A DNA stretch of 64,000 nt from an uncultured Thermoanaerobaculia bacterium (GCA_964420405.1 CAYQTL010000003.1:73154-137153); one strand, 5' to 3'; positions 3,841-63,742 are shown, counted from the stretch's first letter. Notes: a model not told the origin generated them from the sequence alone. Numbers and translations are program-made.

Positions 3841-3875
3841 GGCCGACGCGGTCCGGGTCCGTCGTCACGTCCCAC

Positions 3876-3931
3876 GTCATCCTGAGCGACCGGAGCGCCC
3901 TTGGGGACGCGGAGGGAGTCGAAGGACCTCC
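3876..3931. repeat. Intergenic repeat module M1, copy 1 (GTCATCCTGAGCGACCGGAGCGCCC..GGAGGGAGTCGAAGGACCTCC)
   Basis: Near-identical second copy at 52269-52324. Contains a short GCGCCC/GGGCGC hairpin. Confidence 0.9.
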
Positions 3932-3962: not shown

Positions 3963-3996
3963 CCGATCCCGATCCCGATCCCGATCCCGATCCCGA
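3963..3996. repeat. (CCGATC)n hexamer array, 5 perfect units
   Basis: Read directly: ccgatc x5 then ccgac. Intergenic between the RluD-like and NfeD-like genes. Confidence 0.95.
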
Positions 3997-4089: not shown

Positions 4090-4191
4090 ACGGGCGGCGG
4101 CGGCGCCGTTTCATCTTCCTCTCCCCGCCCGCTCACACCGGGCCGGCATCGGCGCCGGGAACGCCCCGTCCGCTCCCCGTATAATGTCCAC

Positions 4192-4734
4192 ATGACCCTC
4201 GGGTTCATCTACCTGATCCTGTTCCTCGGCGGCTTCCTGCTCGCCCTGGTGACCGGCCTGGTGCGGCGGCTGCTCCACCCGACCGCCTTGTTCGGGGACG
4301 TGGTGGCGCCGTCCCACGAGCACTGGCGAGCCCACCGCGCCCCTCTCACCGACCTGCTGGTGTCGTTCGTCACGGTGTTCGGGCTCGTCACCCTGGTGGT
4401 GCACGGCCTCGCGACGCTCGGGCCCCTGCGCGAGGTCGCGATCGGCGTCGGCGCCGGGCTGCTCGGGGCGCTCGCCCTCCGGGCGGCGCTCGGACGGGGG
4501 CGCGGGCCGGACCGGGGCGAGAACGACGGTCCCACCCACGCCACGGTCGTCCGGGAGATCCCGGTCCTCGGCTTCGGTCAGATCGAGGTGCCGGTCAGCG
4601 GGCGCACGGTCAGGCTGGCCGCCCGGGGCGAGAGCGCGGCGCCGATCCCCGTCGGCGCGACGGTGAGGATCCTCGACCGCCGGGAGTCGGTGGTGGTGGT
4701 GGCGCCGGTGGACGTCCCGGACGTGCGGAGCTGA
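4192..4734 (+). CDS. NfeD-like membrane protein
   Basis: N-terminal TM helices (FIYLILFLGGFLLALV) and C-terminal OB-like segment (GQIEVPVSGRTVRLAARGE..GATVRILD). ATG 6 nt after TATAAT (4180-4185). Confidence 0.65.
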   Translation: MTLGFIYLILFLGGFLLALVTGLVRRLLHPTALFGDVVAPSHEHWRAHRAPLTDLLVSFVTVFGLVTLVVHGLATLGPLREVAIGVGAGLLGALALRAALGRGRGPDRGENDGPTHATVVREIPVLGFGQIEVPVSGRTVRLAARGESAAPIPVGATVRILDRRESVVVVAPVDVPDVRS

Positions 4735-4741
4735 CGGCGGC

Positions 4742-5344
4742 GTGACTCCCCGCGGCCGCATCGTCCTCGCCAGCCGCTCGCCTCGCCGCCGCGAGCTCCT
4801 GACAGTGCTCGGGCTCGCGCACCACGTGGTGCCCGCCGGCGTGGACGAGTCGCAGGGCGCGGACGAGAGCCCGGCCGACCACGCCGGCCGGGTGGCCCGC
4901 GACAAGGCCACGGCGGTCGCGCGTCTGCACGCGGAAGAGCCGGTCCTCGCGGCCGACACGGTGGTCGACATCGACGGCCGGTCGCTCGGCAAGCCCAGCT
5001 CGGCCGACGACGCGGCCGCCATGCTGCGGCACCTGTCCGGCCGCTGCCACCGGGTCCATACCGGCGTGGCCCTGGTCGCCGGCGGCCGCACCGCCTGCCT
5101 CGTGGACACGGCGGAGGTCTGGTTCCGCCCCCTCACAGAGGATGCCGTCAGATGGTACGTGGCCACCGGTGAGCCGATGGACAAGGCCGGCGCCTACGCG
5201 GTCCAGGGGGCCGGCGGAGTCCTCGTGAAGCGGGTCGACGGCTCGCCGCACACCGTCATCGGCCTGCCGCTGCAGCGCCTTCCCGAGCTGTTCGAGGCGG
5301 TCGGCCTCGATCTCTGGTCCCTGCTGAGGTCGGCGGGCTCGTGA
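4742..5344 (+). CDS. maf: Maf-like nucleoside-triphosphate pyrophosphatase
   Basis: IVLASRSPRRRELL, KAGAYAVQG and TVIGLPL motifs typical of Maf/YhdE. 200 aa. Confidence 0.9.
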   Translation: MTPRGRIVLASRSPRRRELLTVLGLAHHVVPAGVDESQGADESPADHAGRVARDKATAVARLHAEEPVLAADTVVDIDGRSLGKPSSADDAAAMLRHLSGRCHRVHTGVALVAGGRTACLVDTAEVWFRPLTEDAVRWYVATGEPMDKAGAYAVQGAGGVLVKRVDGSPHTVIGLPLQRLPELFEAVGLDLWSLLRSAGS

Positions 5345-5500
5345 GGGGCGCGATGGGTCCGCGCAGTCGCGGCACGGCTGGCTGACGTGGACCGGGTCCC
5401 GTCGCGGTCGGACCCGGGAGCAACGACGGGCGCCGCGGAAGCCGTCGACCGACGCAGCTCCCGACGACGCGGCGGATGCTCTCCTGCCGAGCCCGGCCGC

Positions 5501-5827
5501 TCAACGCCCCTCGGTTCCTCCCCCGGCTCCGGAGCTGCCGCTGCACACGTACGGCTCCCCCAGGTCCACCAGCGAGAACGAGGTGAAGATGTGGTGGCCG
5601 TTGAAGTCGAGCACGCGCACGTCCTCGCGGCCCTCCAGGTCGTCCGCCAGAACCTCGTACGGCACCCCGTACACCTGCCGCACACGCTCGAGCGGCGCCT
5701 CGTAGGCGAGGAACCGGTCGATCCCCATCTGGCCGAGCTTCGTCACCAGTCGCCGGTCGGCGATGTCGGGATACGTGGTCAGGAGCAGGATCGGCCCGTT
5801 TCCCGTGAAGACGATGAACGAGCGCAC
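5501..5827 (-). CDS. Small conserved hypothetical protein (paralog B of tandem pair)
   Basis: 108 aa from GTG 5827, 8 nt after the upstream stop. Clearly homologous to the upstream gene (MRSFIVFTGNGPILLLTT.. vs MRSYMVLTETGPMLVMTS..; VYGVPYEVLADDLE vs VYGRPYDVVAAELE). Confidence 0.7.
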   Translation of the reverse strand: MRSFIVFTGNGPILLLTTYPDIADRRLVTKLGQMGIDRFLAYEAPLERVRQVYGVPYEVLADDLEGREDVRVLDFNGHHIFTSFSLVDLGEPYVCSGSSGAGGGTEGR

Positions 5828-5835
5828 CTCCGACC

Positions 5836-6123
5836 TCAGTGCGTGACCGGCCGGCCGAGCCGCGCGAGCGGAAGCGACGCCAGCACGTGCGGGCCGTCCA
5901 GGTCCAGGATCCGCATCGGGACGCCGCTCTCGAGCTCCGCGGCGACCACGTCGTACGGCCTGCCGTACACCCTGCGCACCTCCTCGACCGGCACCTCGTG
6001 CGCGATGAACGCCTCGACGCCCCGCCGCGACAGCGTCTCCAGCACCCGCCGGTCGTCGATCGAGGGACACGACGTCATCACCAGCATGGGACCGGTCTCG
6101 GTCAGCACCATGTACGACCGCAT
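5836..6123 (-). CDS. Small conserved hypothetical protein (paralog A of tandem pair)
   Basis: 95 aa. ATG 6123 is preceded by GGGAGG. The longer 160-aa ORF extension is Arg/Pro-rich and discarded. Confidence 0.7.
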   Translation of the reverse strand: MRSYMVLTETGPMLVMTSCPSIDDRRVLETLSRRGVEAFIAHEVPVEEVRRVYGRPYDVVAAELESGVPMRILDLDGPHVLASLPLARLGRPVTH

Positions 6124-6342
6124 GGCCCACCTCCCGTCTCGGGCCGGTCGAGCCGCGGGGACCGGTCCGACGTCGCCCCGCGGGATCGCGCGCCCGGGTC
6201 CGTCAGGCCCGGGCGGCGCCGTCGTCCGGCGCGGGGCGTTGCACCGACACGCCCGATGGAGCGGGTCACGGCGTGTCGCGGACCCGAACGAACGCTTCCG
6301 GCCGGCTGTCATCTCCAATGTGTGGCCCGGCAGGGGGGTTCG

Positions 6343-8136
6343 TCAACCGCCTGCGCCGTCGTAGGCGGCCGAGATCCCCTCCACGACGCTGCGGGCGAAG
6401 CGCTCCCTCCAGGCGGCCTCGAGCAGCAGAGCGCGGTCGGCGTCGTTGGCCATGTTGCAGGCCTCCACCAGCACCGCGTGCTGGGCGGCCGTGTAGCGCA
6501 GCACGGCGGGCACGAAGCTCCGCCGGCCCCGCAGAATCCGGTCGCGCACCGGCTGGTAGGGATGGGTCTCGACGTCGTTGGCCTCGAAACGGTCGACCAG
6601 CCGCTCGGCGAGGTGGCGGGAGGACGCCTCGACCCGAGCCTTGAACGACGGACCGAGCCGCACGGTGGGATGGTTGCGGTACTCCTGGTAACGGCCGATC
6701 TGCGGATGGCGGACGGTGAACGTCGGCGGACGCATGTAGCGGGACGGAACGTACACCATCGCCCCACGTACGCTCGGATGCAGCGAGTCGGCGTGGATCG
6801 AGACGAACACCGTCTTCGACCGGGGCACGTCCTCTCCGAGCCGGTTGAGGATGATGTCGTTGGTCAGGTACCAGCGCAGGTGCACGCCGATGACGCTGTC
6901 CCGGAGATCGTAGGTCGGCCGCGTCAGGAGGTACTGGTCGCGACGGTTCTCGAGCCGGTCGCGGTCCGGGATCCGGTCGCCGAGGGTACGGTCGAGGCGG
7001 GTCATCCAGACCGTCGCCCGGGTGTGGCGCTCCAGGATCCGCTTCACGCGGCAGGTGAGGTCGTAGACGTAGGTGGCCTCCCACACCCCCGCCACCACCG
7101 ATCCCGGGTCCGCTCCGCCGTGCCCTGCGTCGAGGACGACGTGGACGCCGCCGAGGTCGGCGGCCCGCACGACCTCCAGGAAGCGGTCGAGCTCGCGCCG
7201 CTCCGCCTCCCACGCCACCCGGCGCGGATCGTCCGCCGGCAGGTGCTCCGGCAGCAGGAGCTCGACGGGGATCTTGACCGGAAAGCCGATCGGAATCGAC
7301 GTCACGTCGTGGATTCCGGACCGCCGGGCGATGGCCGCCGCGGTGGCGTTGACCTGGTCGGCCTCGAGCTGACCGGTGAACCGCACGACCACAGCCGAGT
7401 ACAGGGCCTCGCCGGCCCGCAGCCGGTAGACGGCGAACCGGCCGTCGTCGTCCCGGCCGAAGCTCAGCGGCCCGGCAGACCCCGCCGGCGACTCCTCCGC
7501 GGGTGTCGGCGGCGGCGCGGGTGCCGCGACGGGCGTCGGCGTCGCCGGCGGGCGGACCTCGCGGAACACCGGCATCAGCAGCGCCTCTGGGACGACCACC
7601 GGCCGCCCGCGCTGCGGCGCCCCGTCCGGGTGCCCGGGGTTGGCCCGCCGCAGCTCCTCCGCCGCGCCGGCCCGTCCGGCGAAGAGCCCTGCCAGCCATC
7701 CCCAGCTCTCCTCGCCGTCGCCGAAGGGGTCGAGCGGCCAGTGCCGCCACCCTTCCGGCACCCGCTCGTCCATCGGAAACAGCCGTCGTACCACACCGAG
7801 GCGCACGGTCGGCGCGAGGGCCGTCAGCGGAACCCGCACCTCGCGGTCCCGCATCGGATCCACGAGACGCGGGTTGGCGGCACGCAGGCCGGGCGCACCG
7901 TCGGCCCCCCCCGTCCAGGTCCGGGCCAGCGAGATCCAGCCCTCTCCCCCGGCGGGCCGGACGAGCAGCATCGGAGGCTCGCCGCGGCGCCATCGCAGCA
8001 GGCCGTATCCCTCGACCTCCGTCTCCAGCAGGGAAGGCCCCTCGACGGTCGCCGCCGCAGGGAGCACGACCGCGAGGACGAGCAGGGCCCAGATGACGAC
8101 GCCGTCACCGCGGCGCGGCGTGCGCCCGCTCGTCAC
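6343..8136 (-). CDS. N-acetylmuramoyl-L-alanine amidase (Amidase_3) with long N-terminal region
   Basis: VVLDAGHGGADPG, VFVSIHADS and LVEACNMAN motifs of AmiA/B/C-type amidases. Start placed at GTG 8136, giving a signal-like TSGRTPRRGDGVVIWALLVLAVVLPAAA. Start uncertain. Confidence 0.8.
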   Translation of the reverse strand: MTSGRTPRRGDGVVIWALLVLAVVLPAAATVEGPSLLETEVEGYGLLRWRRGEPPMLLVRPAGGEGWISLARTWTGGADGAPGLRAANPRLVDPMRDREVRVPLTALAPTVRLGVVRRLFPMDERVPEGWRHWPLDPFGDGEESWGWLAGLFAGRAGAAEELRRANPGHPDGAPQRGRPVVVPEALLMPVFREVRPPATPTPVAAPAPPPTPAEESPAGSAGPLSFGRDDDGRFAVYRLRAGEALYSAVVVRFTGQLEADQVNATAAAIARRSGIHDVTSIPIGFPVKIPVELLLPEHLPADDPRRVAWEAERRELDRFLEVVRAADLGGVHVVLDAGHGGADPGSVVAGVWEATYVYDLTCRVKRILERHTRATVWMTRLDRTLGDRIPDRDRLENRRDQYLLTRPTYDLRDSVIGVHLRWYLTNDIILNRLGEDVPRSKTVFVSIHADSLHPSVRGAMVYVPSRYMRPPTFTVRHPQIGRYQEYRNHPTVRLGPSFKARVEASSRHLAERLVDRFEANDVETHPYQPVRDRILRGRRSFVPAVLRYTAAQHAVLVEACNMANDADRALLLEAAWRERFARSVVEGISAAYDGAGG

Positions 8137-10030: not shown

Positions 10031-10053
10031 ATCGGGATCGGGATCGGGATCGG
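10031..10053. repeat. (GGGATC)n hexamer array, about 3.5 units
   Basis: atcgggatcgggatcgggatcgg, between convergent kinase and AI-2E genes. Confidence 0.9.
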
Positions 10054-40088: not shown

Positions 40089-40117
40089 ATCGGGATCGGG
40101 ATCGGGATCGGGATGGG
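40089..40117. repeat. (GGGATC)n hexamer array, about 4.5 units
   Basis: atcgggatcgggatcgggatcgggatggg, read directly; intergenic. Confidence 0.95.
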
Positions 40118-44402: not shown

Positions 44403-45704
44403 CTACAGGTGCGATACCCGGTGCGCGGCGAGGATCTCCCGCTGGATGGCGATGTTGTCGCGGTGGCCCGTGAGGCGGGCGGTGACGCGGCCGCGGACAG
44501 GGTAGCCGAGCAGGTACAGGTCGCCGATCACGTCGAGCACCTTGTGGCGCACGAACTCGTCGGGGAACCGCAGCTCGGTGTTGAGGACGTTGTCCTCGCC
44601 GACGAGGATGAAGTTGTCGAGCCGCCCCCCCGAGCCGAGGCCGAGCTCGTTGATCATCTTGAGGTCGCGCATGAAGCCGAAGGTCCGGGCCGGCGCCACC
44701 TCGCGCATGTAGTCCTCGAAGCTCGACAGCCGGAACTCGAAGTGCTGCTCGCCCACCGGCGGTGGGTAGCGCAGCTGGTACGACACCTCGAACCCGTCAC
44801 ACGGCTCGACGACCAGGCTCTTGTCGCGGCCGCCGCCGACCTCGTAGCGGCGGTCGACCACCAGCTCCCGGCGCGGGCGGTCCTGGTCGACGACGCCGAT
44901 CGACGCCAGGTGGCGGCAGAACTCGAGAGCCGAGCCGTCGAGCACAGGGATCTCGCCGTGGACCTTGACCAGGATGTTCGTGATGCCGGCCGCGTGCAGC
45001 GCCGACAGGAGGTGCTCGACGGTGCGGATGCTCTCCCCGCCCGCGGTGAGGGTGGTCGCGTAGTCCGTGTCGGCCACCGCGTCGACGTGGGCCGGGATCA
45101 CGGTCCCCCTGGGAACGGTGACGAAATGGATCCCGCTGTCCGGCGGCAGCGGCTGGATCGCCATCCCGGTCCGCCCCCCGGAGTGGAGGCCGAGGCCGTA
45201 CAGGACGCTGGAGGCGCGGATCGTGCGCTGCGGCAGATCGGAGGTGCGCAGCACGGACAGCTCGGGCGCCGCCCTGAGGTCGCGGTCGACGTCCACCCGT
45301 TCCCGGATCCGCTCGAGGACTCCGCCGCCGGCCCGGGGCCGCTTCGCCGCGAGGGCCGTCCGGACAGCGTCGACCGTCTGGTCGTAGGACAGGGGCTTCT
45401 CGAGGTAGTCGTACGCCCCCATCTTGATCGAGGTGACGGCGGTGGCCGAGGTCCCGTGGCCGGACATCATGATGACCGTCGCGTCGGGATCCAGCTCGAG
45501 GATCGCCTGCAGCGCCTCGAGCCCGTCCCGGTCGGGCAGCCAGATGTCCAGGAACACCACGTCCGGCCGGTCCCGGCGGTACAGCTCGAGAGCCTCCTCG
45601 CCGCTGGCGGTCGTCAGCGTCCGGTAGCCCTCGTCCTCGAGGATGTCCGACATCGCCGTCAGGATGCCGGCCTCGTCGTCGACGATCAGGACGAGCTCGC
45701 TCAC
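44403..45704 (-). CDS. lpxC: Response-regulator receiver domain fused to UDP-3-O-acyl-GlcNAc deacetylase (REC-LpxC)
   Basis: REC: LIVDDE, VVFLDIWLPDRDG, YDYLEKP. LpxC: GLGLHSGG, TVEHLLSAL, FVRHKVLDVIGDLYLLG, TGHRDN. One uninterrupted frame. Start at GTG 45704 or ORF start 45758. Confidence 0.85.
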   Translation of the reverse strand: MSELVLIVDDEAGILTAMSDILEDEGYRTLTTASGEEALELYRRDRPDVVFLDIWLPDRDGLEALQAILELDPDATVIMMSGHGTSATAVTSIKMGAYDYLEKPLSYDQTVDAVRTALAAKRPRAGGGVLERIRERVDVDRDLRAAPELSVLRTSDLPQRTIRASSVLYGLGLHSGGRTGMAIQPLPPDSGIHFVTVPRGTVIPAHVDAVADTDYATTLTAGGESIRTVEHLLSALHAAGITNILVKVHGEIPVLDGSALEFCRHLASIGVVDQDRPRRELVVDRRYEVGGGRDKSLVVEPCDGFEVSYQLRYPPPVGEQHFEFRLSSFEDYMREVAPARTFGFMRDLKMINELGLGSGGRLDNFILVGEDNVLNTELRFPDEFVRHKVLDVIGDLYLLGYPVRGRVTARLTGHRDNIAIQREILAAHRVSHL

Positions 45705-45808
45705 CGTGCCAGTGTGGTTCGGACCACCGGTCCGGTCAAGGCGTCTGGCGCGCCGCACACGTCCGCTACAATGCGCGGCATTCGGCCGACGAGGGGAGGA
45801 TGTCGGAC

Positions 45809-48074: not shown

Positions 48075-48096
48075 TCCCGATCCCGATCCCGATCAC
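48075..48096. repeat. (CCCGAT)n hexamer array, 3 units
   Basis: tcccgatcccgatcccgatcac, 14 nt after the PFK stop. Confidence 0.9.
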
Positions 48097-48947: not shown

Positions 48948-48996
48948 CTCCGATCCCGCTCCCGATCCCGATCCCGATCCCGATCCCGATCCCGAC
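48948..48996. repeat. (CCCGAT)n hexamer array, about 7-8 units (longest in window)
   Basis: ctccgatcccgctcccgatcccgatcccgatcccgatcccgatcccgac, read directly; intergenic. Confidence 0.95.
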
Positions 48997-51136: not shown

Positions 51137-52228
51137 GTGAGCGACACGGCGACCGCAGAGCGGCATCCCACCCGCCACTGGACCCGGCTGGAGGACGGCC
51201 GCGTGCTGTGCGAGGTGTGCCCGCGGCTGTGCCGGCTCCGCGACGGCCAGCGCGGCCTGTGCTTCGTCCGCATGGCGGCGGACGGCGAGATCGTGCTCGC
51301 CACCTACGGCCGCTCGTCGGGGTTCTGCATCGACCCGATCGAGAAGAAGCCCCTCAACCACTTTCTGCCGGGCACCCCGGTGCTGTCGTTCGGCACCGCC
51401 GGCTGCAACCTCGCGTGCCGGTTCTGCCAGAACTGGGACATCTCCAAGTCCCGCGAGATCGACACGCTGGCCGACGAGGCGTCGCCCGGCGCGATCGCGG
51501 CGGCAGCCGAGCGGACCGGCTGCCGGTCGGTGGCGTTCACGTACAACGACCCGGTGGTCTTCATGGAGTACGCGATCGACACCGCCGCCGCGTGCCACGC
51601 CCGGGGGATCGCGACCGTCGCCGTCACCGCCGGCGAGATCCTGCCCGAGCCGCGCCGCGAGCTGTTCGCCGCCATCGACGCCGCCAACGTCGACCTGAAG
51701 TCGTTCCGCGAGGAGTTCTACCGGAAGCTCACCGGCGGCGGCCGCCTGGAGCCGGTGCTCGACACGCTGCGGTACCTGCGGCACGAGACCGACGTCTGGT
51801 TCGAGCTGACGACCCTGCTGATCCCGGGTCACAACGACTCCGACGAGGAGCTCGACGAGATGACCCGGTGGGTGGTCGCCGAGCTGGGTCCCGACGTGCC
51901 GATGCACTTCACCGCGTTCCATCCGGACTACAAGATGCTCGACGTGGCGCCGACGCCCCCCGAGACCCTCCGTCGGGCGCGCCGGATCGCCATCGCCAAC
52001 GGGGTCCGCTACGCCTACACCGGAAACGTCCACGACGCCGACGGCGGCTCGACCCGCTGCCACCGCTGCGGCACGGTGCTCATCGGCCGCGACTGGTACC
52101 GGCTGAGCGACTGGCGGCTCGACGATGAGGGCGCCTGCCGTGAGTGCGGCGAGCCGCTTCCCGGCCGGTTCGAGCCACAGCCTGGCAGCTGGGGACCCCG
52201 CCGCCAGCCGGTACGGATCGGCCGGTAG
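51137..52228 (+). CDS. amrS: AmmeMemoRadiSam-system radical SAM enzyme (AmrS-like)
   Basis: CEVCPRLCRLRDGQRGLCFVR N-terminal Cys motif, IDPIEKKPLNHF, GCNLACRFCQNWDIS radical SAM cluster, C-terminal CHRCG..CRECG. GGAGGGGG SD. Confidence 0.85.
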   Translation: MSDTATAERHPTRHWTRLEDGRVLCEVCPRLCRLRDGQRGLCFVRMAADGEIVLATYGRSSGFCIDPIEKKPLNHFLPGTPVLSFGTAGCNLACRFCQNWDISKSREIDTLADEASPGAIAAAAERTGCRSVAFTYNDPVVFMEYAIDTAAACHARGIATVAVTAGEILPEPRRELFAAIDAANVDLKSFREEFYRKLTGGGRLEPVLDTLRYLRHETDVWFELTTLLIPGHNDSDEELDEMTRWVVAELGPDVPMHFTAFHPDYKMLDVAPTPPETLRRARRIAIANGVRYAYTGNVHDADGGSTRCHRCGTVLIGRDWYRLSDWRLDDEGACRECGEPLPGRFEPQPGSWGPRRQPVRIGR

Positions 52229-52268
52229 AACCGCCCCCCCCCGCACCCCCCCTCCCGATCCCGCTCCC

Positions 52269-52324
52269 GTCATCCTGAGCGACCGGAGCGCCCGTCAGGG
52301 CGCGGAGGGAGTCGAAGGACCTCC
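52269..52324. repeat. Intergenic repeat module M1, copy 2
   Basis: Matches 3876-3931 except for the central loop (cccgtcagggcgcgg vs cccttggggacgcgg). Confidence 0.9.
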
Positions 52325-52376
52325 ACACTCGCTGCGCCGCCGTTCACGGAGGTCGGAACAGCCACGGAGCCAGGAT

Positions 52377-52417
52377 CAGCGGCAGCGACAGGGTCAGCGA
52401 CAGGGTCAGCCGCAGCG
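52377..52417. repeat. Repeat module M4 (CAGCGACAGGGTCAGC units)
   Basis: cagcggcagcgacagggtcagcgacagggtcagccgcagcg. Runs into the 221-bp repeat. Confidence 0.8.
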
Positions 52418-52621
52418 TGCAGCCCCCGGGCGACCTCGGTCTCCCCTCTCTCGCGTCCTCTCCCCCGTCCGCACCGATGCGGCGGCAGGAGCAGCGGCAG
52501 CGACGACACCGGATCCCGAATCCCGCCGCCCGCCACCTGCCGCCCGGATCCCAAGCTCCGGGCGGCGGGTGGCCGGAATCGGGAGCCGGGCTTCGGGTTC
52601 CGGCGGTCGCGGCCCGGCTGC
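52401..52621. repeat. 221-bp perfect direct repeat, left copy
   Basis: Identical base for base to 56797-57017 (offset 4396, checked by eye). Contains a 16-bp-stem hairpin at 52533-52572. Confidence 0.95.
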
Positions 52622-52634
52622 TTGCGGGTTGCGG

Positions 52635-52813
52635 GTGCCCGGTCCGACGATTTGGCGATCTTGAAGTCTGCCTCCGCGCCGTGGTGACCCGCTCATCAAG
52701 CCGTCGAACTGCGTCGTGGCCTCGAAACGGTGGAGAGGAACCGGGACGAGCCCACGCTCGAGAGCCGACCCAGGAACCGTCCCAGGGAATCGCCAGATCG
52801 TCGGGCCCGGCAC
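52635..52813. mobile_element. MITE-like element, left copy (about 179 bp with about 26-bp terminal inverted repeats)
   Basis: Ends GTGCCCGGTCCGACGATTTGGCGATC and GAATCGCCAGATCGTCGGGCCCGGCAC are inverted repeats (about 22/26 match). Second copy at 56237-56422. No ORF inside. Confidence 0.55.
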
Positions 52814-52858
52814 CGCAAGCCACAAGCGTGGACACCATTACGAGGAAGCCCCCGAAGT

Positions 52859-52946
52859 GTCCGCGTTCGCTCGAATCACTGTCCGCGTTCCCTCGAGTTC
52901 GTGTCCACGTTCGCTCGGAACCCTGTCCGCGTTGCGTCGGCCTCCG
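52859..52946. repeat. Four direct repeats with exact 22-bp period (core GTCC[G/A]CGTT[C/G])
   Basis: Cores start at 52859, 52881, 52903 and 52925. The units share GTCCGCGTTCGCTCG-like heads and variable tails. Confidence 0.85.
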
Positions 52947-53124
52947 CAGTGAAGGACCTTGTGCCGACATGGCCGTGTTGTGAGGTTGTTATCAGTGGCA
53001 CCTTTGACTGGCACGGTTTCACCAACCGGCTATTGAAACCGGCGGACGGGTGCCTGGCATCCGCCGATCGCCATGGGGCGCGGGATGGCCGGTTCTGCTT
53101 CAGCGGTGCCCCACCTTCTGAGAA

Positions 53125-55563
53125 TCAACCCGCGGTGGCGTCGCTTTCCGAACCCTCCTCGAGTTCGAGGCGAAGCAGACCGCCTGGCGGGAGAAGGCCC
53201 TCTGCGCAGCGGGCATCTGGAGGAGTGGCGCCTAGGAGGGCTGCGACGGCTTCATCGGCGCTTGAGAACAGACACGCCCGGTAGTGTCCCGGGGCGAGCT
53301 GGGGGATCCTCGCCCGATCGCTCGTGGGGTTCAGCGTGGCGCCAACGTAACGCGCCCATCCAAGAAGCTCAATCATTGGCAGCGGGAGACCGTCGGCCCA
53401 CGCCAACCAGCCTCCTTGGGGTAGTCCAGTCCCCGCGTCCGTAGCTGGCGCCGCCCGTCGCACGTCTATCTCGAGGGTCCCCCCTGCGGCCGTGACCGGG
53501 AGGATGACGTCGGTCCCCTCGCCAAACTGCACCAAACGTACCGTGAGTGCATAGGGTGGAGGCGCCACAATAGCAAGGGCGCGGGTAGCGTGGCGCGGCA
53601 TTACGAGCCTGAACCTGCCGTTGGCATCGGTGACCGCAGACTCGGTGGCGGCCTGCGTCAGGTTGTCCCAATCGGTGGTCATCGTGACCCGTGCGCCGAC
53701 TACCGGCCGGCCCTCCCCGATCACAGTTCCGGTGACCTCACGCCGGTCAAGGAGCTTCAGCTCCACAGGGGCGGCCGCACCTCGTGTAGGGATTTCGACG
53801 TGGGTGTACTCCGACTGCCGGATTCCGTCGTCGAGGCCGCTGTGCGCGACGAGCCACACTGGACCGGGCGTAATGCCAACGAATTGAAAGCTCCCGTCGC
53901 CTTCGGACTGTCGGGACGTAAGCGGGACAAAATCGATGCCAAGCATGGTGACCATCGCCCCCTCAACCATCCGACCACCTTCATCGACTACCACGCCCCG
54001 AGCCCCACTGTCGGGAACGCGAAGCTCGACCTCGCTGCACTCACCTTCTCTTTCTTCAACCTCCACGTCGCGCAGGAGGGCGTCGAGGCCCGTTTCCGGG
54101 TCCCGCACTTGGACGGTCCATGACCCCGATCTGGGGAGCAGGCCAGCGAATCGCCCGTCCTCGTCAGCCTGAAGGTGCGCGCCAGGGCTGGCGCCGGCCC
54201 CGCCGAAGTGGACGAAGGCCTGCACAGGCAGGTCCCCGGAGAGCACCGTGCCGCACACCTCGACCGAAACGACCTCCAGCCGCACGAACGGCGAATCTGG
54301 CTGCACGTCGATCCCCACGGTCAGCATGACACCCTGGTCTGCCAGAAGGGTCACCTCGACCAGGCCAGGCGCCAGATTCGGAACCATCACCGTGCCGTCC
54401 AGCGGGACACTGAGGTCGAAGAGTACCGGTCGCTCGAGGGCGCCTCTGGGGGGATGGCCCTGGAGCCTCCAGGGCACACCCCCTGGCGCGGTGGGCGGGG
54501 CGATTTGCACCTCGAGTTCTACCGGTCTCTCCAGGACCACGAACTGGGTGATCTGGGTCTCGTCGCCCTCGTACACCGGCAGCGGCCCTATCCGGGTTGG
54601 CAGGAAGCCTGGCTGCTCCGCGGTCACGACGTAGCTGCCCGCACCGACGCCTTCAACGACGAAGTTGCCGCGATCGTCGGGACTCGTTGTTCGGCGCTGG
54701 GCCGCCCGTCGGGTCATCTCTTCCGCCGAGGGCGGCGCCGTTGCGGGTGATGGCGCGGGTTCAAGGGTGACAGCACACAACGAGGGCTCCGCCGGTCCCT
54801 CCGCCGTGCGTACCCGGCCGAGCACCGAGCCCCCCGGGACGAAGGTCACGGTTCCTATGTCTCGTGTCACACCGGACGTCAGCTCTTGCTGCAGCACAAG
54901 AACGGATGCGAAGCCCTGGGACCGCAGCCGGAGATCGAGAGTGGTGGCAGGGACACTACAGCGAAAGGCCAGGTCTTCCACCAGGCATCGGGTTTCCCCA
55001 CGCGGTTCCGTCTCCTCTACCACCTGTTCGAAGGTCTGGCCGTTTTCATCGCCAATCGCCTGACGTTTGACCACGGTCGCGCCACGAAATTCCACAAGGA
55101 TCTCCTGGGGAACGGGGGCTCGCGCCGGCGTCTCGATCCGCCCGGAGACCCCAGTCAGCGGCCAAGCGACCACCTCGGTCCGGCCGCTCTCGTCGCTTGC
55201 CATCACCGTCGTTGGCGCGGCCCACCACGATGGGTTGGTCAACGTCACTGTCCACAGGCTCCCGGTGGGAACCTCGACGGTGACCGAGCCGGGGATCGTC
55301 ACCTCGAGCGTCAGGTCCGCTTCTATTGCATCGCCGTGACCGCCCGCCCAGGACAGCACCAGGCTGGCCTGGGCGGGCTCAGTGTCCTCGGGCAGGCTCA
55401 GGCTCGTTGCCGCCGTCACGACGACCTCGACGCGACTGGCCTCGAATCCGTCGGCCCCAGCCGACATCCCCACCATCGCGAGCATCGCTGCAACCGCGGT
55501 GCTCCGCAGCCGACTCCGTCTCGTCCTCACCTTCCTGCGAACGGCAGCCATGAGCCCGCCCAT
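53125..55563 (-). CDS. Secreted 812-aa protein with multiple CarboxypepD_reg-like (Ig-like beta-sandwich) domains
   Basis: Signal-like RSTAVAAMLAMVGMSAGADG. At least four segments fit the regulatory-domain pattern (e.g. VTGTVIGEGRPVVGARVTMT..TDANGRFRLV; ARGVVVDEGGRMVEGAMVTM..GDGSFQFVGI). GC lower than neighbours. A start at 55551 is also possible. Confidence 0.8.
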   Translation of the reverse strand: MGGLMAAVRRKVRTRRSRLRSTAVAAMLAMVGMSAGADGFEASRVEVVVTAATSLSLPEDTEPAQASLVLSWAGGHGDAIEADLTLEVTIPGSVTVEVPTGSLWTVTLTNPSWWAAPTTVMASDESGRTEVVAWPLTGVSGRIETPARAPVPQEILVEFRGATVVKRQAIGDENGQTFEQVVEETEPRGETRCLVEDLAFRCSVPATTLDLRLRSQGFASVLVLQQELTSGVTRDIGTVTFVPGGSVLGRVRTAEGPAEPSLCAVTLEPAPSPATAPPSAEEMTRRAAQRRTTSPDDRGNFVVEGVGAGSYVVTAEQPGFLPTRIGPLPVYEGDETQITQFVVLERPVELEVQIAPPTAPGGVPWRLQGHPPRGALERPVLFDLSVPLDGTVMVPNLAPGLVEVTLLADQGVMLTVGIDVQPDSPFVRLEVVSVEVCGTVLSGDLPVQAFVHFGGAGASPGAHLQADEDGRFAGLLPRSGSWTVQVRDPETGLDALLRDVEVEEREGECSEVELRVPDSGARGVVVDEGGRMVEGAMVTMLGIDFVPLTSRQSEGDGSFQFVGITPGPVWLVAHSGLDDGIRQSEYTHVEIPTRGAAAPVELKLLDRREVTGTVIGEGRPVVGARVTMTTDWDNLTQAATESAVTDANGRFRLVMPRHATRALAIVAPPPYALTVRLVQFGEGTDVILPVTAAGGTLEIDVRRAAPATDAGTGLPQGGWLAWADGLPLPMIELLGWARYVGATLNPTSDRARIPQLAPGHYRACLFSSADEAVAALLGATPPDARCAEGLLPPGGLLRLELEEGSESDATAG

Positions 55564-55677
55564 GTCAGTCTTTCGCGGTCGGTAACGGAAGTACCCGGGT
55601 CGAAGCTGAGTCGGCTGGCTGCGGTTGAGGGAAGGCGGCGGCGCATCCAGCCTTATTGGTTGATCCCTCGATGATGA

Positions 55678-55962
55678 TCACCTCGCAGAACGACCCCCCA
55701 GAGTGCACATGGTGCCCATGGGGAAGATCTGGTCCTCGTCGCAATTGCATTTGCCCACGACTCCAGGCAAGGTCGTAATGCAGCGAGAACCGAACAGTGG
55801 TATGTACATACACTTATAGCAATCGTACGGCGGGCTCCAACAGGTATACGACCCTCCTTCGGCGTCAACCTGTCCTGTTCCCAGACACGCGGCTCCAAAA
55901 GCAAGCGTCAGGATCGTCACCTTCAGCGAAGTACGTAACCCAACAAAGGTCGTCGTTTTCAT
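55678..55962 (-). CDS. Cys-rich secreted mini-protein (94 aa), no recognised family
   Basis: AAAGGAGG 5 nt before ATG 55962. Signal MKTTTFVGLRTSLKVTILTLAFGAACLG. Remainder has Cys pattern C-x6-C-x2-C-x9-C-x10-C-x-C-x11-C. Directly upstream of, and co-oriented with, the 812-aa gene. Confidence 0.75.
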   Translation of the reverse strand: MKTTTFVGLRTSLKVTILTLAFGAACLGTGQVDAEGGSYTCWSPPYDCYKCMYIPLFGSRCITTLPGVVGKCNCDEDQIFPMGTMCTLGGRSAR

Positions 55963-55980
55963 CCGTGCCTCCTTTTCTGA

Positions 55981-56009
55981 ATTTTGGCGTTTCCCATTTT
56001 CGTGGTCAA
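55981..56009 (-). promoter_or_regulatory. Sigma70-like promoter for the Cys-rich gene (TTGACC-17 nt-CAAAAT)
   Basis: On the minus strand, TTGACC (56009-56004), a 17-nt spacer, then CAAAAT (55986-55981), about 18 nt before the ATG. A direct repeat CTAGAG-CG-CTAGAG (plus-strand reading) lies just upstream, at about 56029-56042. Confidence 0.4.
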
Positions 56010-56236
56010 CTGTTTTCTTGGCAACAGCTAGAGCGCTAGAGATAGTAAGTTCTTTTTCAGTCATCCTGCGGAGATTATTCCCAAGTCGGGATACACCTGC
56101 GTGAGCCGCGTGCTCGGGCCGTGTTGAGCGCCCGGACGGAGGCGTTCGACCGCGGCCGAGGCGCCTGGGGACTGGGGGCTCCCGCGATCGTGGGCGGACG
56201 AACACGGGAGCATTCAGCATTCCCTAAATGTTGCGG

Positions 56237-56422
56237 ATGCCTGGTCCGACGATTTGGCGATCTTGAAGTCTGCCTCCGCGCCGTGGTGACCCGCTCATCA
56301 AGCCGTCGAACTGCGTCGTGGCCTCGAAACGGTGGAGAGGAACCGGGACGAGCCCACGCTCGAGAGCCAACCCAGGAACCGTCCCCCGTCCCAGGGAATC
56401 GCCAAATCGTCGGGCCCGGCAC
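56237..56422. mobile_element. MITE-like element, right copy
   Basis: Collinear with 52635-52813 (same orientation). A few substitutions plus a 6-7 bp insertion (ccccgt) near the right end. Same inverted termini. Confidence 0.55.
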
Positions 56423-56453
56423 CGAAACCGAAACCCGAAACCCGGCACCGAAA

Positions 56454-56759
56454 ATGGCCATGTCAGGCAGAACGTCGGTCGGGCACTCCTCGCCCGGCGC
56501 CGGCTGCGGGTCAACGACCTCGGGGCCGGCCGGGATCCTCGCCGGCGCGGCGAGCGTGATCAGCAACGACACCGGCCCCGCCCACCTCGGCGCGGCGCTC
56601 GGCCGCCCGAGACTGACCCTCTTCGGCGACAAGGACCCGAACTGGCCCGCGGCGCGAGGGTCCCGGGCCGTGGCCCTCGGCGCTCTCGGAGCGCGGCCCT
56701 GCCTCGACGATGCCTGGGATGCCTGGCGCGGGCTCGCGACCCTTCCGATCCGTTCCTGA
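56454..56759 (+). pseudogene. 3-prime remnant of a GT9 (heptosyltransferase-like) glycosyltransferase
   Basis: ASVISNDTGPAHLGAALGRPRLTLFGDKDPNWP matches the conserved C-terminal GT9 block (..NDSGPMHLAAALG.P.V.LFG..). Only about 100 codons remain, and the upstream sequence is the MITE copy. Confidence 0.5.
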
Positions 56760-56813
56760 CAGCGGCAGCGGCAGGGACAGCGACAGGAGGCAGCGTCAGG
56801 GTCAGCCGCAGCG
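56760..56813. repeat. Repeat module M4
   Basis: cagcggcagcggcagggacagcgacaggaggcagcgtcagggtcagccgcagcg. Runs into the right 221-bp repeat. Confidence 0.8.
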
Positions 56814-57017
56814 TGCAGCCCCCGGGCGACCTCGGTCTCCCCTCTCTCGCGTCCTCTCCCCCGTCCGCACCGATGCGGCGGCAGGAGCAGCGGCAGCGAC
56901 GACACCGGATCCCGAATCCCGCCGCCCGCCACCTGCCGCCCGGATCCCAAGCTCCGGGCGGCGGGTGGCCGGAATCGGGAGCCGGGCTTCGGGTTCCGGC
57001 GGTCGCGGCCCGGCTGC
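56797..57017. repeat. 221-bp perfect direct repeat, right copy
   Basis: Identical to 52401-52621. Hairpin at 56929-56968. Confidence 0.95.
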
Positions 57018-57109: not shown

Positions 57110-57520
57110 TCACTCCCCGACCCGGCCCTCCCCGGCCAGCTCCGCCTCGGCCTCGATCTCGACCCGCCAGGCGGGGTCGAGCAGCCCCCGGACGACGACC
57201 ATCGTCGCCGCCGGCCGGACCTCCCGGAACACCTCGCCGTGGGCGCGCCCGACCGCCTCCCAGTCGGCGGCGTCCACGAGGAACATGCGCGTGCGCACGA
57301 CGTCGGCGGCCGACCCGCCGAGCGCCTCGACGGCCTCCACGATGATCTCGAAGCAGCGCCGCGCCTGGGCGAAGGCGTCGCCGTCGACGGTGCGGCCGTC
57401 GCGACCGATCGGCGCGGTCCCCGCCACCACGATCCGCGAGCCGCGCCGCACCGCCCGCGAGAACCCGATCTCGGCCTCGTACGGCGACGCGGACCCCACG
57501 CGCCGGATGTCGTCGCTCAT
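57110..57520 (-). CDS. RidA/YjgF family protein
   Basis: SPYEAEIGFSRAVRRGSRIVVAGT.. and C-terminal WRVEIEAEA are typical of the family. GGAGGTG SD before ATG 57520. Confidence 0.8.
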   Translation of the reverse strand: MSDDIRRVGSASPYEAEIGFSRAVRRGSRIVVAGTAPIGRDGRTVDGDAFAQARRCFEIIVEAVEALGGSAADVVRTRMFLVDAADWEAVGRAHGEVFREVRPAATMVVVRGLLDPAWRVEIEAEAELAGEGRVGE

Positions 57521-57626
57521 CGCCCACCTCCGGACCCGATGGTGCGCCGTCCGCCCCGCCCTGTCCACGGTCGCTGCACCGTCGCGCCCGGCGGACGCAC
57601 TCCACAGCGACAGCCACGTCCCTCCA

Positions 57627-57675: not shown

Positions 57676-57684
57676 CGCCCGGTG

Positions 57685-57742
57685 CAGCGGCAGCGACAGG
57701 GCCAGCGGCAGATGGCAGGGACAGCGTCAGCGACGGTCAGCC
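57685..57742. repeat. Repeat module M4
   Basis: cagcggcagcgacagggccagcggcagatggcagggacagcgtcagcgacggtcagcc. Confidence 0.8.
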
Positions 57743-57872: not shown

Positions 57873-59111
57873 TCAGCGCCCGAGGTCGATCCGGCGGATC
57901 TCCTTCCACGGCACGTAGGTCTCGCCGCCGTCGCCGAGCACGACGACGCCGGCGTTGCGGTCGGTCACGTCCTGTCCGTCCTCGAGCCGCAGCTCCTCTG
58001 CGGAGGTCAGCCTGACCACGGCGCCGCCGCGGCGGTCGGGCTCGATCGACGCCACCATCGCGAACGGGATCGCGTACTCGATCCCGTCGGCGCCGCCGTG
58101 CAGCATCTCCCAGCCCTCCGCCTCGTCGAGGTCGTAGACCAGCCGGCCCGAGTGGGTCGCGCCGTCGACCGTCGTCACCCGCCCCTCGATCGGACCGCCG
58201 CCGTCGAAGGCGTCGTACCCCCGGCCGGAGCCCGATGCCGGGCGCAGCTCGACACGACGGAAGCCGCCCCAGTCGAGCTCGACGCGGCCGAAGCGTGGAT
58301 CCTCCACGAAGATCCCCCGGATGGAGGAGTCCACGTCGTTGGTGCCGTCGAGGACCAGCTCGCGGCCGTCGGCGAGGGTCACCTTCGCGCTCGAGCGGCT
58401 GTGGCGCTCGATCACCGCGATCCGGCCCATCGGGATCGACATCCGGCCGTCCTCCGAGTCGCCGTCGAGCTCGTCGCTGGAGAGGCACTCCTGCGAGTCC
58501 CACATGACGAAGCCGTCGAAGGTGCCGTCGTCGCCGACCACCGTTCCCTCGAGCCTCCGGGCGGGTGCGGGGGTCCCCGCGGGTGCCGCCGAGAAACGGA
58601 TGCGCTCGATCTTGCCCCACGGCACCTCGATGGCGCCGAGGGTGGCGTCGGCGACGTGGATCGTCGCGGTGACGTCGTTGGCGTAGCCCTCGACCCGGTA
58701 GGTCGAACCGGTCTTCATCCGGACCTCGGCCTCGCCGTCGCCCGGCACCGCGATCTCGGCGATGTCGCCGAACCGCGCGGCGAAGATGCGCCCGCCGGCG
58801 CCGTCCTCCCACGACACCCGGAACCGCTTGCCGAAGAGGTCCCACCAGCGCTCCTGGCGGCCGCCGTCGCCAGCCGCCTCGTCCTCGTACCGCTCGAGGT
58901 ACTCCAGCCCCTGCTTGGCGGAGTGGAACACGTCGTCCCAGAACGCCTCCTCGTCGTCCCAGCGCAGCACTCCGGTGTACTCGCCGCCGCTGCGGGTGGT
59001 CACGGTGCCGTGGATGAAGCCCGCGGCGTCATCCGCCGCAGCCGGTGCCGCCGCGACGGCGAGCAGGCCGGCGACGATCGCGATCGGAATCCGTCTCGTG
59101 ATGGTGGTCAT
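57873..59111 (-). CDS. Secreted protein with three internal repeats, unknown function (ECF operon member)
   Basis: Signal MTTITRRIPIAIVAGLLAVAAAPAAA. The repeat G-x-V-x-T..G..-[YF]-x-G-x-[LV]-x-[WY]-D..E occurs three times (GFIHGTVTTRSGGEYTGVLRWDDEE; LEGTVVGDDGTFDGFVMWDSQE; IEGRVTTVDGATHSGRLVYDLDE). GGAGGA SD. Confidence 0.75.
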   Translation of the reverse strand: MTTITRRIPIAIVAGLLAVAAAPAAADDAAGFIHGTVTTRSGGEYTGVLRWDDEEAFWDDVFHSAKQGLEYLERYEDEAAGDGGRQERWWDLFGKRFRVSWEDGAGGRIFAARFGDIAEIAVPGDGEAEVRMKTGSTYRVEGYANDVTATIHVADATLGAIEVPWGKIERIRFSAAPAGTPAPARRLEGTVVGDDGTFDGFVMWDSQECLSSDELDGDSEDGRMSIPMGRIAVIERHSRSSAKVTLADGRELVLDGTNDVDSSIRGIFVEDPRFGRVELDWGGFRRVELRPASGSGRGYDAFDGGGPIEGRVTTVDGATHSGRLVYDLDEAEGWEMLHGGADGIEYAIPFAMVASIEPDRRGGAVVRLTSAEELRLEDGQDVTDRNAGVVVLGDGGETYVPWKEIRRIDLGR

Positions 59112-61982: not shown

Positions 61983-62254
61983 GGTCGAGCTCCTTTCCGT
62001 CCTCATGCCCCTTCGATGCCGGAGACGAGCCCAGGGTTGAAAGGCGCCCGGCGCAGCCGAGAAACGGCATCGCTCCGACCCGCGGCAGGCGACCATCCGC
62101 CGCACCCGTCCCGTTCCCGAACCCGCGCCCGAGCGAGGTCCTCCAGTCGCGGCAGCTTCTCACCGCAGAGGCGGGGGTACTGAGGGGCCATGCGCCACGC
62201 CTGCCCGGCGACCCTGCCGCTGGGGCCTGTCGCTGTCGCTGACACACCGCCACC

Positions 62255-62283
62255 ATCGGGATCGGAATCGGGATCGGAATCGG
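62255..62283. repeat. (GGGATC/GGAATC)n hexamer array
   Basis: atcgggatcggaatcgggatcggaatcgg, in the divergent spacer between the DUF4097-like and FKBP genes. Confidence 0.9.
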
Positions 62284-62366
62284 AGGCGCGGAGACGGCGA
62301 CACGCGGCCCGGCCTCCGGTGGCCCCCGGTTGCGCGCCGACCGCCGTCGCGGTAGCCTCCGCAGCC

Positions 62367-63164
62367 ATGAGAAACCGCACTCTCGCGACGCTCGCCTGCC
62401 TGCTTCTCGCCACCGCCGCACTCGCCGGCGACCCGATCCCGGCGCCGGCCGACGTCGAAGCCCCGCCCGAGGACGCCGAGGTGACGGCCTCCGGCCTCGC
62501 CTCCAAGGTGCTCGAGGAGGGCGACGGCGACGTGCATCCCGGCCCGAGCGACGCCGTCACCGTCCACTACACGGGATGGACGACCGACGGGAAGATGTTC
62601 GACTCGTCCGTCCAGCGCGGGCAGCCCGCGACGTTTCCGCTCAACCGTGTCATCGCCGGCTGGACCGAGGGCCTCCAGCTGATGGTCGAGGGCGAGACGC
62701 GGCGGATCTGGATTCCCGAGGAGCTCGCCTACAAGGGCCAGCCGGGCCGGCCCGCCGGGATGCTGGTCTTCGACGTCGAGCTGCTCGAGATCCACACCGC
62801 ACCGAAGGCACCGGCCGACGTCGCCGCACCGCCGGAGGACGCCGCGGTCACGAAGAGCGGTCTCGCGTCGAAGGTGATCGCGAAGGGGACCGGCACCGGA
62901 CACCCGAAGGCGTCGAGCCGCGTCACCGTCCACTACACCGGCTGGACCACCGACGGCGAGATGTTCGACTCGTCGATCACCCGGGGCAAGCCTGCGACCT
63001 TCCCCCTCAACCGGGTGATCGCCGGCTGGACCGAGGGCCTGCAGCTGATGGTCGTCGGCGAGACGCGCCGCTTCTGGATCCCCGAGGAGCTCGCCTACGA
63101 AGGCCGACCCGGCGCACCGCAGGGAATGCTGGTGTTCGACGTCGAGCTGCTGTCGTTCGAGTAG
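62367..63164 (+). CDS. Secreted tandem-domain FKBP-type peptidyl-prolyl isomerase
   Basis: Two FKBP domains (VTVHYTGWTTDG[KE]MFDSS..FPLNRVIAGWTEGLQLM..LVFDVELL, twice). Signal MRNRTLATLACLLLATAALAG. ATG 8 nt after TAGCCT (62353-62358). Confidence 0.88.
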   Translation: MRNRTLATLACLLLATAALAGDPIPAPADVEAPPEDAEVTASGLASKVLEEGDGDVHPGPSDAVTVHYTGWTTDGKMFDSSVQRGQPATFPLNRVIAGWTEGLQLMVEGETRRIWIPEELAYKGQPGRPAGMLVFDVELLEIHTAPKAPADVAAPPEDAAVTKSGLASKVIAKGTGTGHPKASSRVTVHYTGWTTDGEMFDSSITRGKPATFPLNRVIAGWTEGLQLMVVGETRRFWIPEELAYEGRPGAPQGMLVFDVELLSFE

Positions 63165-63184
63165 CCGGCCCCGCCGGAACCGCC

Positions 63185-63574
63185 ATGGCCGACCTTGACG
63201 ACGTCCTGGTGGTGGAGGACAACCCGCAGAACCTCGAGCTGGTGACCTACCTGCTCGAAGAGGCCGGGATCCGCGTCCGTTCGGCGGGGGACGCGGGCAC
63301 GACCCATCTCGTCCTCGCCGCCGGCCTGCCCGATGCGGTCCTGATGGACATGCAGCTCCCGGGAACCGACGGCCTCGGGTTGGTGGCCCGGCTGCGGGCC
63401 GACCCACGGACCGCCCACCTGCCCATCATCGCGCTCACCGCCCACGCCATGCGCGGCGACCGCGAGCGCTTCCTCGCGGGCGGCTGCGACGGCTACCTCG
63501 CCAAGCCGATCGACACCGCCACCTTCGTCGACGACGTCCGCCGGCTCGTCGCCGAGGTGCGCCGCCGCCGCTGA
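63185..63574 (+). CDS. Single-domain response regulator (CheY-like)
   Basis: VLVVEDNPQN, AVLMDMQLPGTDG, IIALTAHAM and GYLAKPID receiver motifs. 129 aa. Confidence 0.88.
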   Translation: MADLDDVLVVEDNPQNLELVTYLLEEAGIRVRSAGDAGTTHLVLAAGLPDAVLMDMQLPGTDGLGLVARLRADPRTAHLPIIALTAHAMRGDRERFLAGGCDGYLAKPIDTATFVDDVRRLVAEVRRRR

Positions 63575-63709: not shown

Positions 63710-63742
63710 ATCGGGATCGGGATCGGGATCGGGATCGGATCG
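63710..63742. repeat. (GGGATC)n hexamer array, about 5 units
   Basis: atcgggatcgggatcgggatcgggatcggatcg, read directly. Confidence 0.95.

Follow-up and report, generated by a model that had tools for sequence, protein, structure and literature searches.

Deletions of adjacent DNA mediated by insertion sequences (IS), and RecA-type deletion or gene conversion between direct repeats, are established processes. Identical copies of miniature inverted-repeat transposable elements (MITEs) flank class 1 integrons in Acinetobacter in a layout like that of a composite transposon, and copies of MITE-297 flank a 76-kb mer region (PMC6382973). Here a locus of comparable layout was analysed in a 64-kb stretch of DNA from an uncultured Thermoanaerobaculia bacterium (GCA_964420405.1, CAYQTL010000003.1:73154-137153), hereafter the window, with coordinates counted along the plus strand. 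A cassette of two genes, encoding an 812-amino-acid (aa) secreted protein and a small cysteine-rich secreted protein, lies there between two direct copies of a ~190-nt MITE-like element (MITE_L and MITE_R), next to the stub of a glycosyltransferase family 9 (GT9) gene and, one step further out, between two copies of a 221-bp direct repeat (R). With modest confidence, we read this locus as a horizontally acquired islet of ~3.8 kb (52628-56427), consisting of a MITE-framed operon beside which the GT9 gene has been eroded. It is an ordinary small genomic islet and not a new kind of mobile element. Loci for comparison, 170 in all, were fetched and are labelled with L-numbers (L081, L086 and so on); L081, L084 and L085 come from the samples JGI 3300017698, SRR22808025 and SRR7048221, respectively.

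The cassette is a compositional outlier, and such atypical composition is one of the marks of a genomic island. Within the 64 kb, positions 53501-56500 form both the 3-kb segment of lowest GC (0.645 against a median of 0.739) and the one that deviates most in tetranucleotide usage (distance 0.41; median 0.153, with a robust standard deviation, sd, of 0.020). With 26 host genes as reference (mean GC content at third codon positions, GC3, of 0.925, sd 0.045), the 812-aa gene has a GC3 of 0.750 (z = -3.9) and the small gene one of 0.621 (z = -6.8). The original prediction had called the cassette AT-richer than its surroundings on hand counts of 27/60, 34/60 and 45/60 G+C; these counts were exact, and the windowed GC and tetranucleotide profiles agree with them.

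An assembly chimera, a possibility raised together with the original prediction, is ruled out by L081, an independent 4.3-kb contig from a Joint Genome Institute (JGI) metagenome with about 97% DNA identity to the window. The order in L081 is amrS flank, MITE_L, cassette, MITE_R, GT9 stub, R and ridA; since every junction is reproduced, the cassette is real. The two sequences differ by an indel at all four MITE borders (269, 180, 11 and 78 nt). Outside MITE_L, the 269 nt of window 52359-52627, including the whole left R copy, are absent from L081, where MITE_L abuts sequence equal to window 52340-52358. Inside MITE_L, L081 is without the 180-nt block 52834-53012. An 11-nt indel marks the inner border of MITE_R, and at its outer border the GT9 stub of L081 is shorter by a further 78 nt. 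The L081 contig ends 21 nt past MITE_L, so that the lack of a left R copy there is evidenced by just 21 nt of flank. The 180-nt block contains a tandem repeat with the 22-nt unit TGTCCGCGTTCGCTCGAATCCC, which adjoins a relatively AT-rich stretch and could be an array of protein-binding sites.

Both predicted MITE-like direct copies were confirmed in the sequence. MITE_L and MITE_R agree at 98% of positions over 156 nt and at 95% over 42 nt, with one 7-nt indel, and each carries terminal inverted repeats of 24-26 nt that are 92% complementary. The 16-nt core of the inverted repeat occurs four times in the 64 kb with at most one mismatch, solely at the ends of the MITE-like copies; by chance, 0.59 matches would be expected even if three mismatches were tolerated. 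When MITE_L is folded as single-stranded DNA, its ends pair into a stem of ~45 bp (z = -3.3), because heptamer repeats (CTTGCGG / GTTGCGG ... CCGCAAG / CCACAAG) lengthen the inverted repeat; with these extensions MITE_L spans to about 52621-52836 and the element is ~215 nt long. The copies are thus small (under about 500 bp) and non-coding, with spurious open reading frames (ORFs) only, and both have the terminal inverted repeats expected of a MITE, while their position on either side of the cargo is that of the two elements of a composite transposon. No Rfam match was obtained, either at the gathering threshold or at E ≤ 1, so the repeats do not belong to a known RNA family. Scans of viral contigs for the inverted repeat and of plasmids for R plus MITE gave no match. 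A scan of JGI metagenomes for both inverted repeats also returned nothing, but it missed even the known copies of L081, and its negative result therefore carries little weight.

Comparison with syntenic relatives located a cassette-free version of the locus. L086 and L087 are collinear with window 63586-57879, sharing a response regulator, FKBP, an extracytoplasmic function (ECF) sigma factor, a downstream 203-aa ORF and a gene for a 412-aa secreted protein. They have the same composition as the window (GC 72.8%, GC3 0.92-0.96) and are more distant from it (AmrS 83% and 412-aa protein 69% identical). In both, the 412-aa gene directly adjoins the amrS counterpart (83% protein identity) across a 392-bp spacer that holds no ridA, GT9 gene or cassette, and homology to the window breaks off no more than about 20 nt from either stop codon. 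The cassette is in this sense absent from a syntenic relative, as expected of a genomic island, though that relative is distant and also lacks ridA. An empty site carrying an intact GT9 gene had been anticipated; the cassette-free locus was found, the intact GT9 gene was not. The 412-aa protein of L085 is 90% identical to that of the window, from which L085 diverges just past the terminator of the gene and then resembles the L086 spacer; this tail, on a contig that ends inside hexamer repeats, is no more than suggestive of an L086-like junction. A scan of genome contigs with AmrS, a too strongly conserved query, gave a best match of 75% identity, and the sole locus in that scan with both anchors was L069, where they lie about 5.6 kb apart and the 412-aa protein is 48% identical. 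A metagenome scan with RidA found no close relative (best match 74% identical).

The two cassette genes were found adjacent in four further assemblies, L082, L168 (GCA_964512045.1), L169 and L170, at about 80% DNA identity to the window, which answers in the affirmative whether they co-occur elsewhere. Three of these contigs (L082, L168 and L170) continue far enough upstream to show the pair divergent from mipA, and no MITE is present at any of the four copies. These genomes have a GC content of 66-68%, and the GC3 of the pair (0.85) is like that of its neighbours there. Homology to the window extends from 53114, 10 nt past the stop codon of the large gene, to about 56040, ~70 nt upstream of the start of the small gene, so that only the operon plus its promoter is common to the window and the mipA-linked copies; no remnant of mipA was found upstream of the small gene in the window. 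The same two genes, gene order, promoter box and translational coupling are seen in the window and in the mipA-linked pairs; the pair in the window differs in that the mipA neighbour has been lost, MITE-like copies have been gained, GC3 is lower and the small gene is frameshifted. L168 also contains, at 4125-6773, a second, paralogous pair consisting of a 78-aa protein with 16 cysteines and a 764-aa CarboxypepD_reg protein, separated from mipA by a cytochrome c gene only, which makes the pairing a recurring module. Horizontal acquisition of the cassette from a foreign source, as originally proposed, is almost certain and well supported by these sequence comparisons, because the composition is an outlier, the interval is missing in L086 and the pair occurs elsewhere in a different, mipA-linked context. 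That linkage also hints at a role of the cargo in the outer membrane or envelope.

The small gene had been annotated as encoding a 94-aa Cys-rich protein (55678-55962). The ORF exists, but it is a frameshifted version of a gene for a 129-132-aa protein, the full-length frame of which runs on in ORF 55565-55813. The frameshift (-1) lies in a G6 tract of the gene (plus-strand C6, 55694-55699). Across seven assemblies this poly-G tract is G6, G7, G8 or interrupted, and in three of them the gene has lost its frame: comparison of G6 in the window with G7 in L081 makes the 94-aa protein a -1 frameshift product, while L082 and L170, both with G8, are +1. The in-frame protein of L081, L084, L168 and L169 is 129-132 aa long, with a conserved C-terminal extension (FCExIIIEGSxNxAGCAAAFPQPQ), and seven cysteines of the small protein are invariant. 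The variation in tract length could reflect phase variation, decay or homopolymer sequencing error, as far as the assemblies allow a judgement. L081 has its own frameshift in the large gene instead, a single-A insertion around 2384-2428 (window coordinate 54842) that leaves ORFs of 263 aa and 530 aa. The stop codon of the in-frame small gene and the start of the large one overlap (TGAcATG), an arrangement that indicates translational coupling. Upstream of the small gene are a Shine-Dalgarno sequence (AAGGAGG, 55968-55974) and a promoter region with three promoter-like sites against 0.3 expected, the -35 box of which (GTTGAC) aligns with the copies in L082, L168 and L170. A phmmer search of 1.84e9 cluster representatives with the small protein found two homologous clusters besides its own, and its AlphaFold2 model was unusable (predicted local distance difference test score, pLDDT, of 34).

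The 812-aa protein has, by eye, a Sec-type signal peptide, and its AlphaFold2 model (pLDDT 76.8) is all-beta with about eight beta-sandwich domains. Foldseek returned likeness at the level of single domains only, to TIE proteins, pilins, CnaB and alpha-2-macroglobulin. A fold match of the whole chain was rejected, since template-modelling (TM) scores reached at most 0.15 and the hits were generic beta-sandwich arrays only. No catalytic domain was found by Pfam, NCBIfam or PADLOC, and neither PADLOC nor NCBIfam gave a match to the cargo. Seven homologues of the protein were found among 5.8e9 proteins and none on viral contigs; dN/dS against L082, L084 and L168 is about 0.3.

Table 1. Positions of the cassette, its flanking repeats and the neighbouring features in the window.
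Feature	Position	Strand	Basis or remark
amrS-like radical SAM gene, left conserved anchor	51137..52228	+	Pfam Radical_SAM
Strain-specific segment: (CAGCGR)n hexamer block, then left R copy (52401-52621)	52359..52627	+	
MITE_L, left copy of ~190-nt non-coding element	52628..52818	+	also in L081
180-nt segment with 22-nt tandem repeat x3.5 (52858-52933)	52834..53012	+	missing from L081
812-aa secreted protein, CarboxypepD_reg x3 + DUF6795	53125..55563	-	Pfam
Small Cys-rich secreted-protein gene	55565..55962	-	alignment of seven assemblies
AT-rich promoter region of cassette, TTGACC-17-CAAAAT	55981..56046	-	
MITE_R, right copy, direct orientation	56230..56427	+	
GT9 (heptosyltransferase-like) 3′ stub	56428..56759	+	Pfam, NCBIfam; CCGAAAC microsatellite at MITE border
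Right R copy: hexamer block, then 221-bp repeat at 56797-57017	56760..57017	+	
ridA	57110..57568	-	Pfam
412-aa secreted protein, right conserved anchor	57873..59111	-	synteny with L085, L086, L087
(CCCGAT)n/(ATCGGG)n arrays	3968-3991, 10031-10048, 40089-40112, 48076-48093, 48961-48990, 63710-63733		

The GT9 remnant to the right of the cassette was upheld as a true 3′ stub. Positions 56454-56759 match Pfam Glyco_transf_9 at profile positions 180-237 of 247 (E = 3e-11) and the NCBIfam heptosyltransferase profiles (RfaC, RfaF) at about positions 245-299 of 320-348, which is the C-terminal quarter only; no N-terminal part of a GT9 gene was found anywhere in the interval. The composition of the stub is host-like (GC3 0.88, z = -0.9), and it starts exactly at the outer end of MITE_R. 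In a homologue search the only match was the stub itself, with no intact close homologue. A resident LPS-core gene may have been destroyed here, as suggested in the original prediction; L086, the one relative in which both flanks are present, has neither GT9 nor ridA at the locus.

The outer repeat is likewise as predicted in sequence, 52401-52621 and 56797-57017 being identical over exactly 221 bp (a repeat finder stretches R to 227 nt by accepting a single mismatch, at 52400). The left copy holds an 88-nt imperfect palindrome at 52509-52596 (fold z = -3.8) and stops exactly at the outer end of MITE_L (52621/52622); its left flank (52359-52400) is unlike that of the right copy. The nested-repeat architecture built on this pair did not hold, because L081 has the cassette and the right R copy without the left one, which makes the outer pair strain-specific and places it outside the shared islet structure. 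The L081 copy of R is 77% identical to the right copy of the window over 56791-56870, compared with 97-99% between the two strains in the GT9 stub, the distal part of R and the ridA side, and this 77% stretch begins exactly where the identity between the left and right R copies of the window begins. From these alignments, the drop in identity looks like the trace of gene conversion between R copies, or of replacement of one by another, within a single lineage. The left copy was either gained in the lineage of the window or lost in L081 with later homogenisation. That R is a high-copy dispersed family was considered and ruled out, as the 64 kb contain two full copies only and the other matches are hexamer blocks. 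Such blocks (CAGCGR / CAGGGN) stand just past gene ends at 52377-52423, 56760-56819 and 57684-57732, and a comparable block adjoins amrS in L086 (5750-5850) in the opposite orientation.

The islet may have arisen and changed as follows. The cargo would be one operon with its own sigma-70-like promoter, the small Cys-rich gene coming first and, in its intact form, being translationally coupled to the 812-aa protein of beta-sandwich repeats. Placed between two direct ~190-nt copies, this operon has the layout of a MITE-bounded composite transposon, and the entire unit could be mobilised by a transposase provided in trans and acting on the outermost inverted repeat at either end. The unit sits in a variable spacer between amrS and the 412-aa gene, beside ridA and the GT9 gene. 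The loss of the 5′ part of the GT9 gene, and the additional 78-nt loss in L081, would be deletions starting at the end of the element, and the cassette could be looped out by RecA-type recombination, whether between the ~190-nt copies or between the R copies. The cargo itself may now be decaying or phase-varying, or be affected by homopolymer sequencing errors. On this account the cassette would be mobile.

Several results weigh against this account. Among the 41 ORFs scanned with Pfam across the window, which include every sizeable ORF of the interval and leave out the far-right FKBP-like gene (62190-63164) and a 116-aa ORF (63095-63445), none has a transposase or integrase domain; ARAGORN found no tRNA or tmRNA. 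The absence of integrase, transposase and tRNA genes had been noted in the original prediction, and the cassette consequently shows neither the integrase nor the tRNA/tmRNA target of a genomic island. No direct repeat is common to the flanks of the four element copies (window and L081), although the ends of the elements are blurred by heptamer repeats and indels, so that a short or eroded target-site duplication may have escaped detection. None was seen round the whole unit either: the outer left flank in L081, GGTCGGAA(AA), resembles the outer right flank, CCGAAACCC, weakly at best. Further copies of the ~190-nt element were found nowhere else in the 64 kb and, among the 170 fetched loci, in L081 only. 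No MITE-bounded unit was found at another location; because the cassette copies elsewhere never carry the repeats, movement as a MITE-bounded unit is unobserved, and no excision product, deletion or circular variant of the cassette was seen. With a GC3 of 0.75, the cassette in the window falls below the mipA-linked copies (0.85), so those genomes are not the direct donors. Finally, ridA is of native composition (GC3 0.98) and is nonetheless missing at the L086 locus, so that the site seen as empty by comparison extends beyond the islet as defined by composition.

A more far-reaching interpretation is that the ~190-nt elements are a new family of non-autonomous transposons in Thermoanaerobaculia/Acidobacteriota, which captured the operon and moved it as a composite, the cargo being a rare secreted module with a poly-G switch. 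Slippage in the tract would then switch the small Cys-rich component and also uncouple translation of its large partner. We regard this as doubtful, though worth keeping in mind.

Alternatively, the ~190-nt copies could be attL and attR of a site-specifically integrated island, the integrase and remainder of which have since been deleted. Direct repeats flanking foreign DNA, the missing target-site duplication and the heavy border indels, which suggest decay, would all suit such a remnant. Each copy, however, has its own terminal inverted repeats of 26 to 45 bp, ~130 nt apart, which is the anatomy of transposon ends and not that of attachment sites; the ~190-nt repeat is absent from the empty locus of L086 and is therefore not a duplicated chromosomal target; and there is no tRNA/tmRNA gene and no recombinase remnant among the ORFs. 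An origin of this kind is unlikely.

Equally unlikely is that a 4.4-kb circle or segment (MITE, cassette, MITE, GT9 stub and R) entered by homologous recombination with a resident R, the GT9 stub being a hitch-hiker from an earlier location and not the remains of a gene disrupted on the spot. The left R copy ends at MITE_L and the right one follows the GT9 stub, so that the copies are spaced at a 4396-bp period and the structure can be written as R-X-R; the R copies have clearly recombined, and the L086 locus is without GT9. L081, however, has the cassette and GT9 stub with the right R copy only, which makes R-X-R unnecessary and would demand a precise secondary loss of the left copy, and two full copies in 64 kb do not make R a dispersed family.

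It is quite improbable that the operon is an old, vertically inherited and lineage-specific one, with low GC from relaxed selection or decay, repeats arising as local duplications, and loss of the locus in L086. Such descent would account for the same arrangement and an even shorter GT9 stub in L081, for the one frameshifted cassette gene in each strain, for a dN/dS (about 0.3) that indicates only moderate constraint, and for the absence from L086 of ridA, a gene of native composition. It is difficult to reconcile with a GC3 that is 4-7 sd below the host genes and a tetranucleotide distance that exceeds the median by about 13 robust sd, with ~80% identical copies in genomes of clearly different GC3 and conserved mipA context, with the extreme sparseness of the family in large databases, and with L085, the 412-aa protein of which is 90% identical and which diverges just past the terminator of that gene.

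Least probable of all is that faulty assembly of the source genome created the left R copy and hence the outer bracket of perfect 221-bp repeats: the copy occurs in the window only, is perfectly identical to the right one and is missing from L081 (where only the 21 nt of flank bear on its absence), but its left flank 52359-52400 differs from that of the right copy, and the right R copy of the window differs from L081 exactly over its first 80 nt, as expected from real conversion.

If read as an eroding foreign islet, the locus illustrates cleanly and on a small scale how a GC-rich and poorly studied lineage takes up foreign genes and then erodes them, the signs of erosion being the indels at each element border, the neighbouring lipopolysaccharide gene reduced to a stub and the homogenised repeat copies. 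It gives no pointer to a new mobilisation mechanism. The cargo is maybe the more interesting part, since it has almost no homologues in several billion proteins.

The remainder of the window supplied observations of a separate kind. The ORFs scanned are housekeeping genes, for example PGK, PFK, LpxC, RNB nuclease and NAPRTase. LpxC (44403-45758, minus strand), which catalyses the committed step of lipid A synthesis, carries a response-regulator receiver domain as an N-terminal fusion, an arrangement unusual for this step. For the 412-aa secreted protein neither Pfam nor NCBIfam gave a match, although 433 homologues were found (E ≤ 0.001), and in the syntenic L085-L087 its gene keeps as neighbours the ECF sigma factor and a downstream ORF of 203-208 aa. 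The FKBP-like gene at 62190-63164 contains an internal tandem duplication of 366 nt (62441-63151; 83% and 74% identical), with both halves of which the FKBP protein of L086 aligns. Perfect hexanucleotide arrays, (CCCGAT)n or (ATCGGG)n with 3-5 units, occur at six sites, all intergenic, and looser copies at further gene boundaries; they look like a genome-wide intergenic microsatellite. A 57-nt intergenic repeat was also found, with 93% identity between 3875-3931 and 52268-52324 (CGTCATCCTGAGCGACCGGAGCGCCC...GGAGGGAGTCGAAGGACCTCC).

Among the known systems, classical genomic islands and islets share with the cassette atypical GC, codon usage and tetranucleotides, direct repeats on either side, a syntenic relative that lacks the insert and a truncated neighbouring gene; unlike them, the cassette has no tRNA/tmRNA target and no integrase, and its cargo is two genes (~3 kb). 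With regard to deletion systems, no active transposase was found and no deletion product seen. The truncation of GT9 from the end of the element and the further 78-nt loss in L081 are nevertheless as in IS-mediated adjacent deletion, and the conversion-like identity boundary in R is as in RecA-type conversion between repeats. Compared with the MITE-bounded composites of PMC6382973, the window shows no target-site duplication, no other element copies or cognate IS are known, and movement of the unit is unobserved; the locus is chromosomal and probably of Acidobacteriota rather than on a Moraxellaceae plasmid, and in place of resistance genes it carries an operon for secreted proteins. What the two have in common is a pair of near-identical, non-coding elements of a few hundred bp that bear terminal inverted repeats and enclose foreign cargo, with no transposase inside and with the cargo absent from relatives (PMC6382973).

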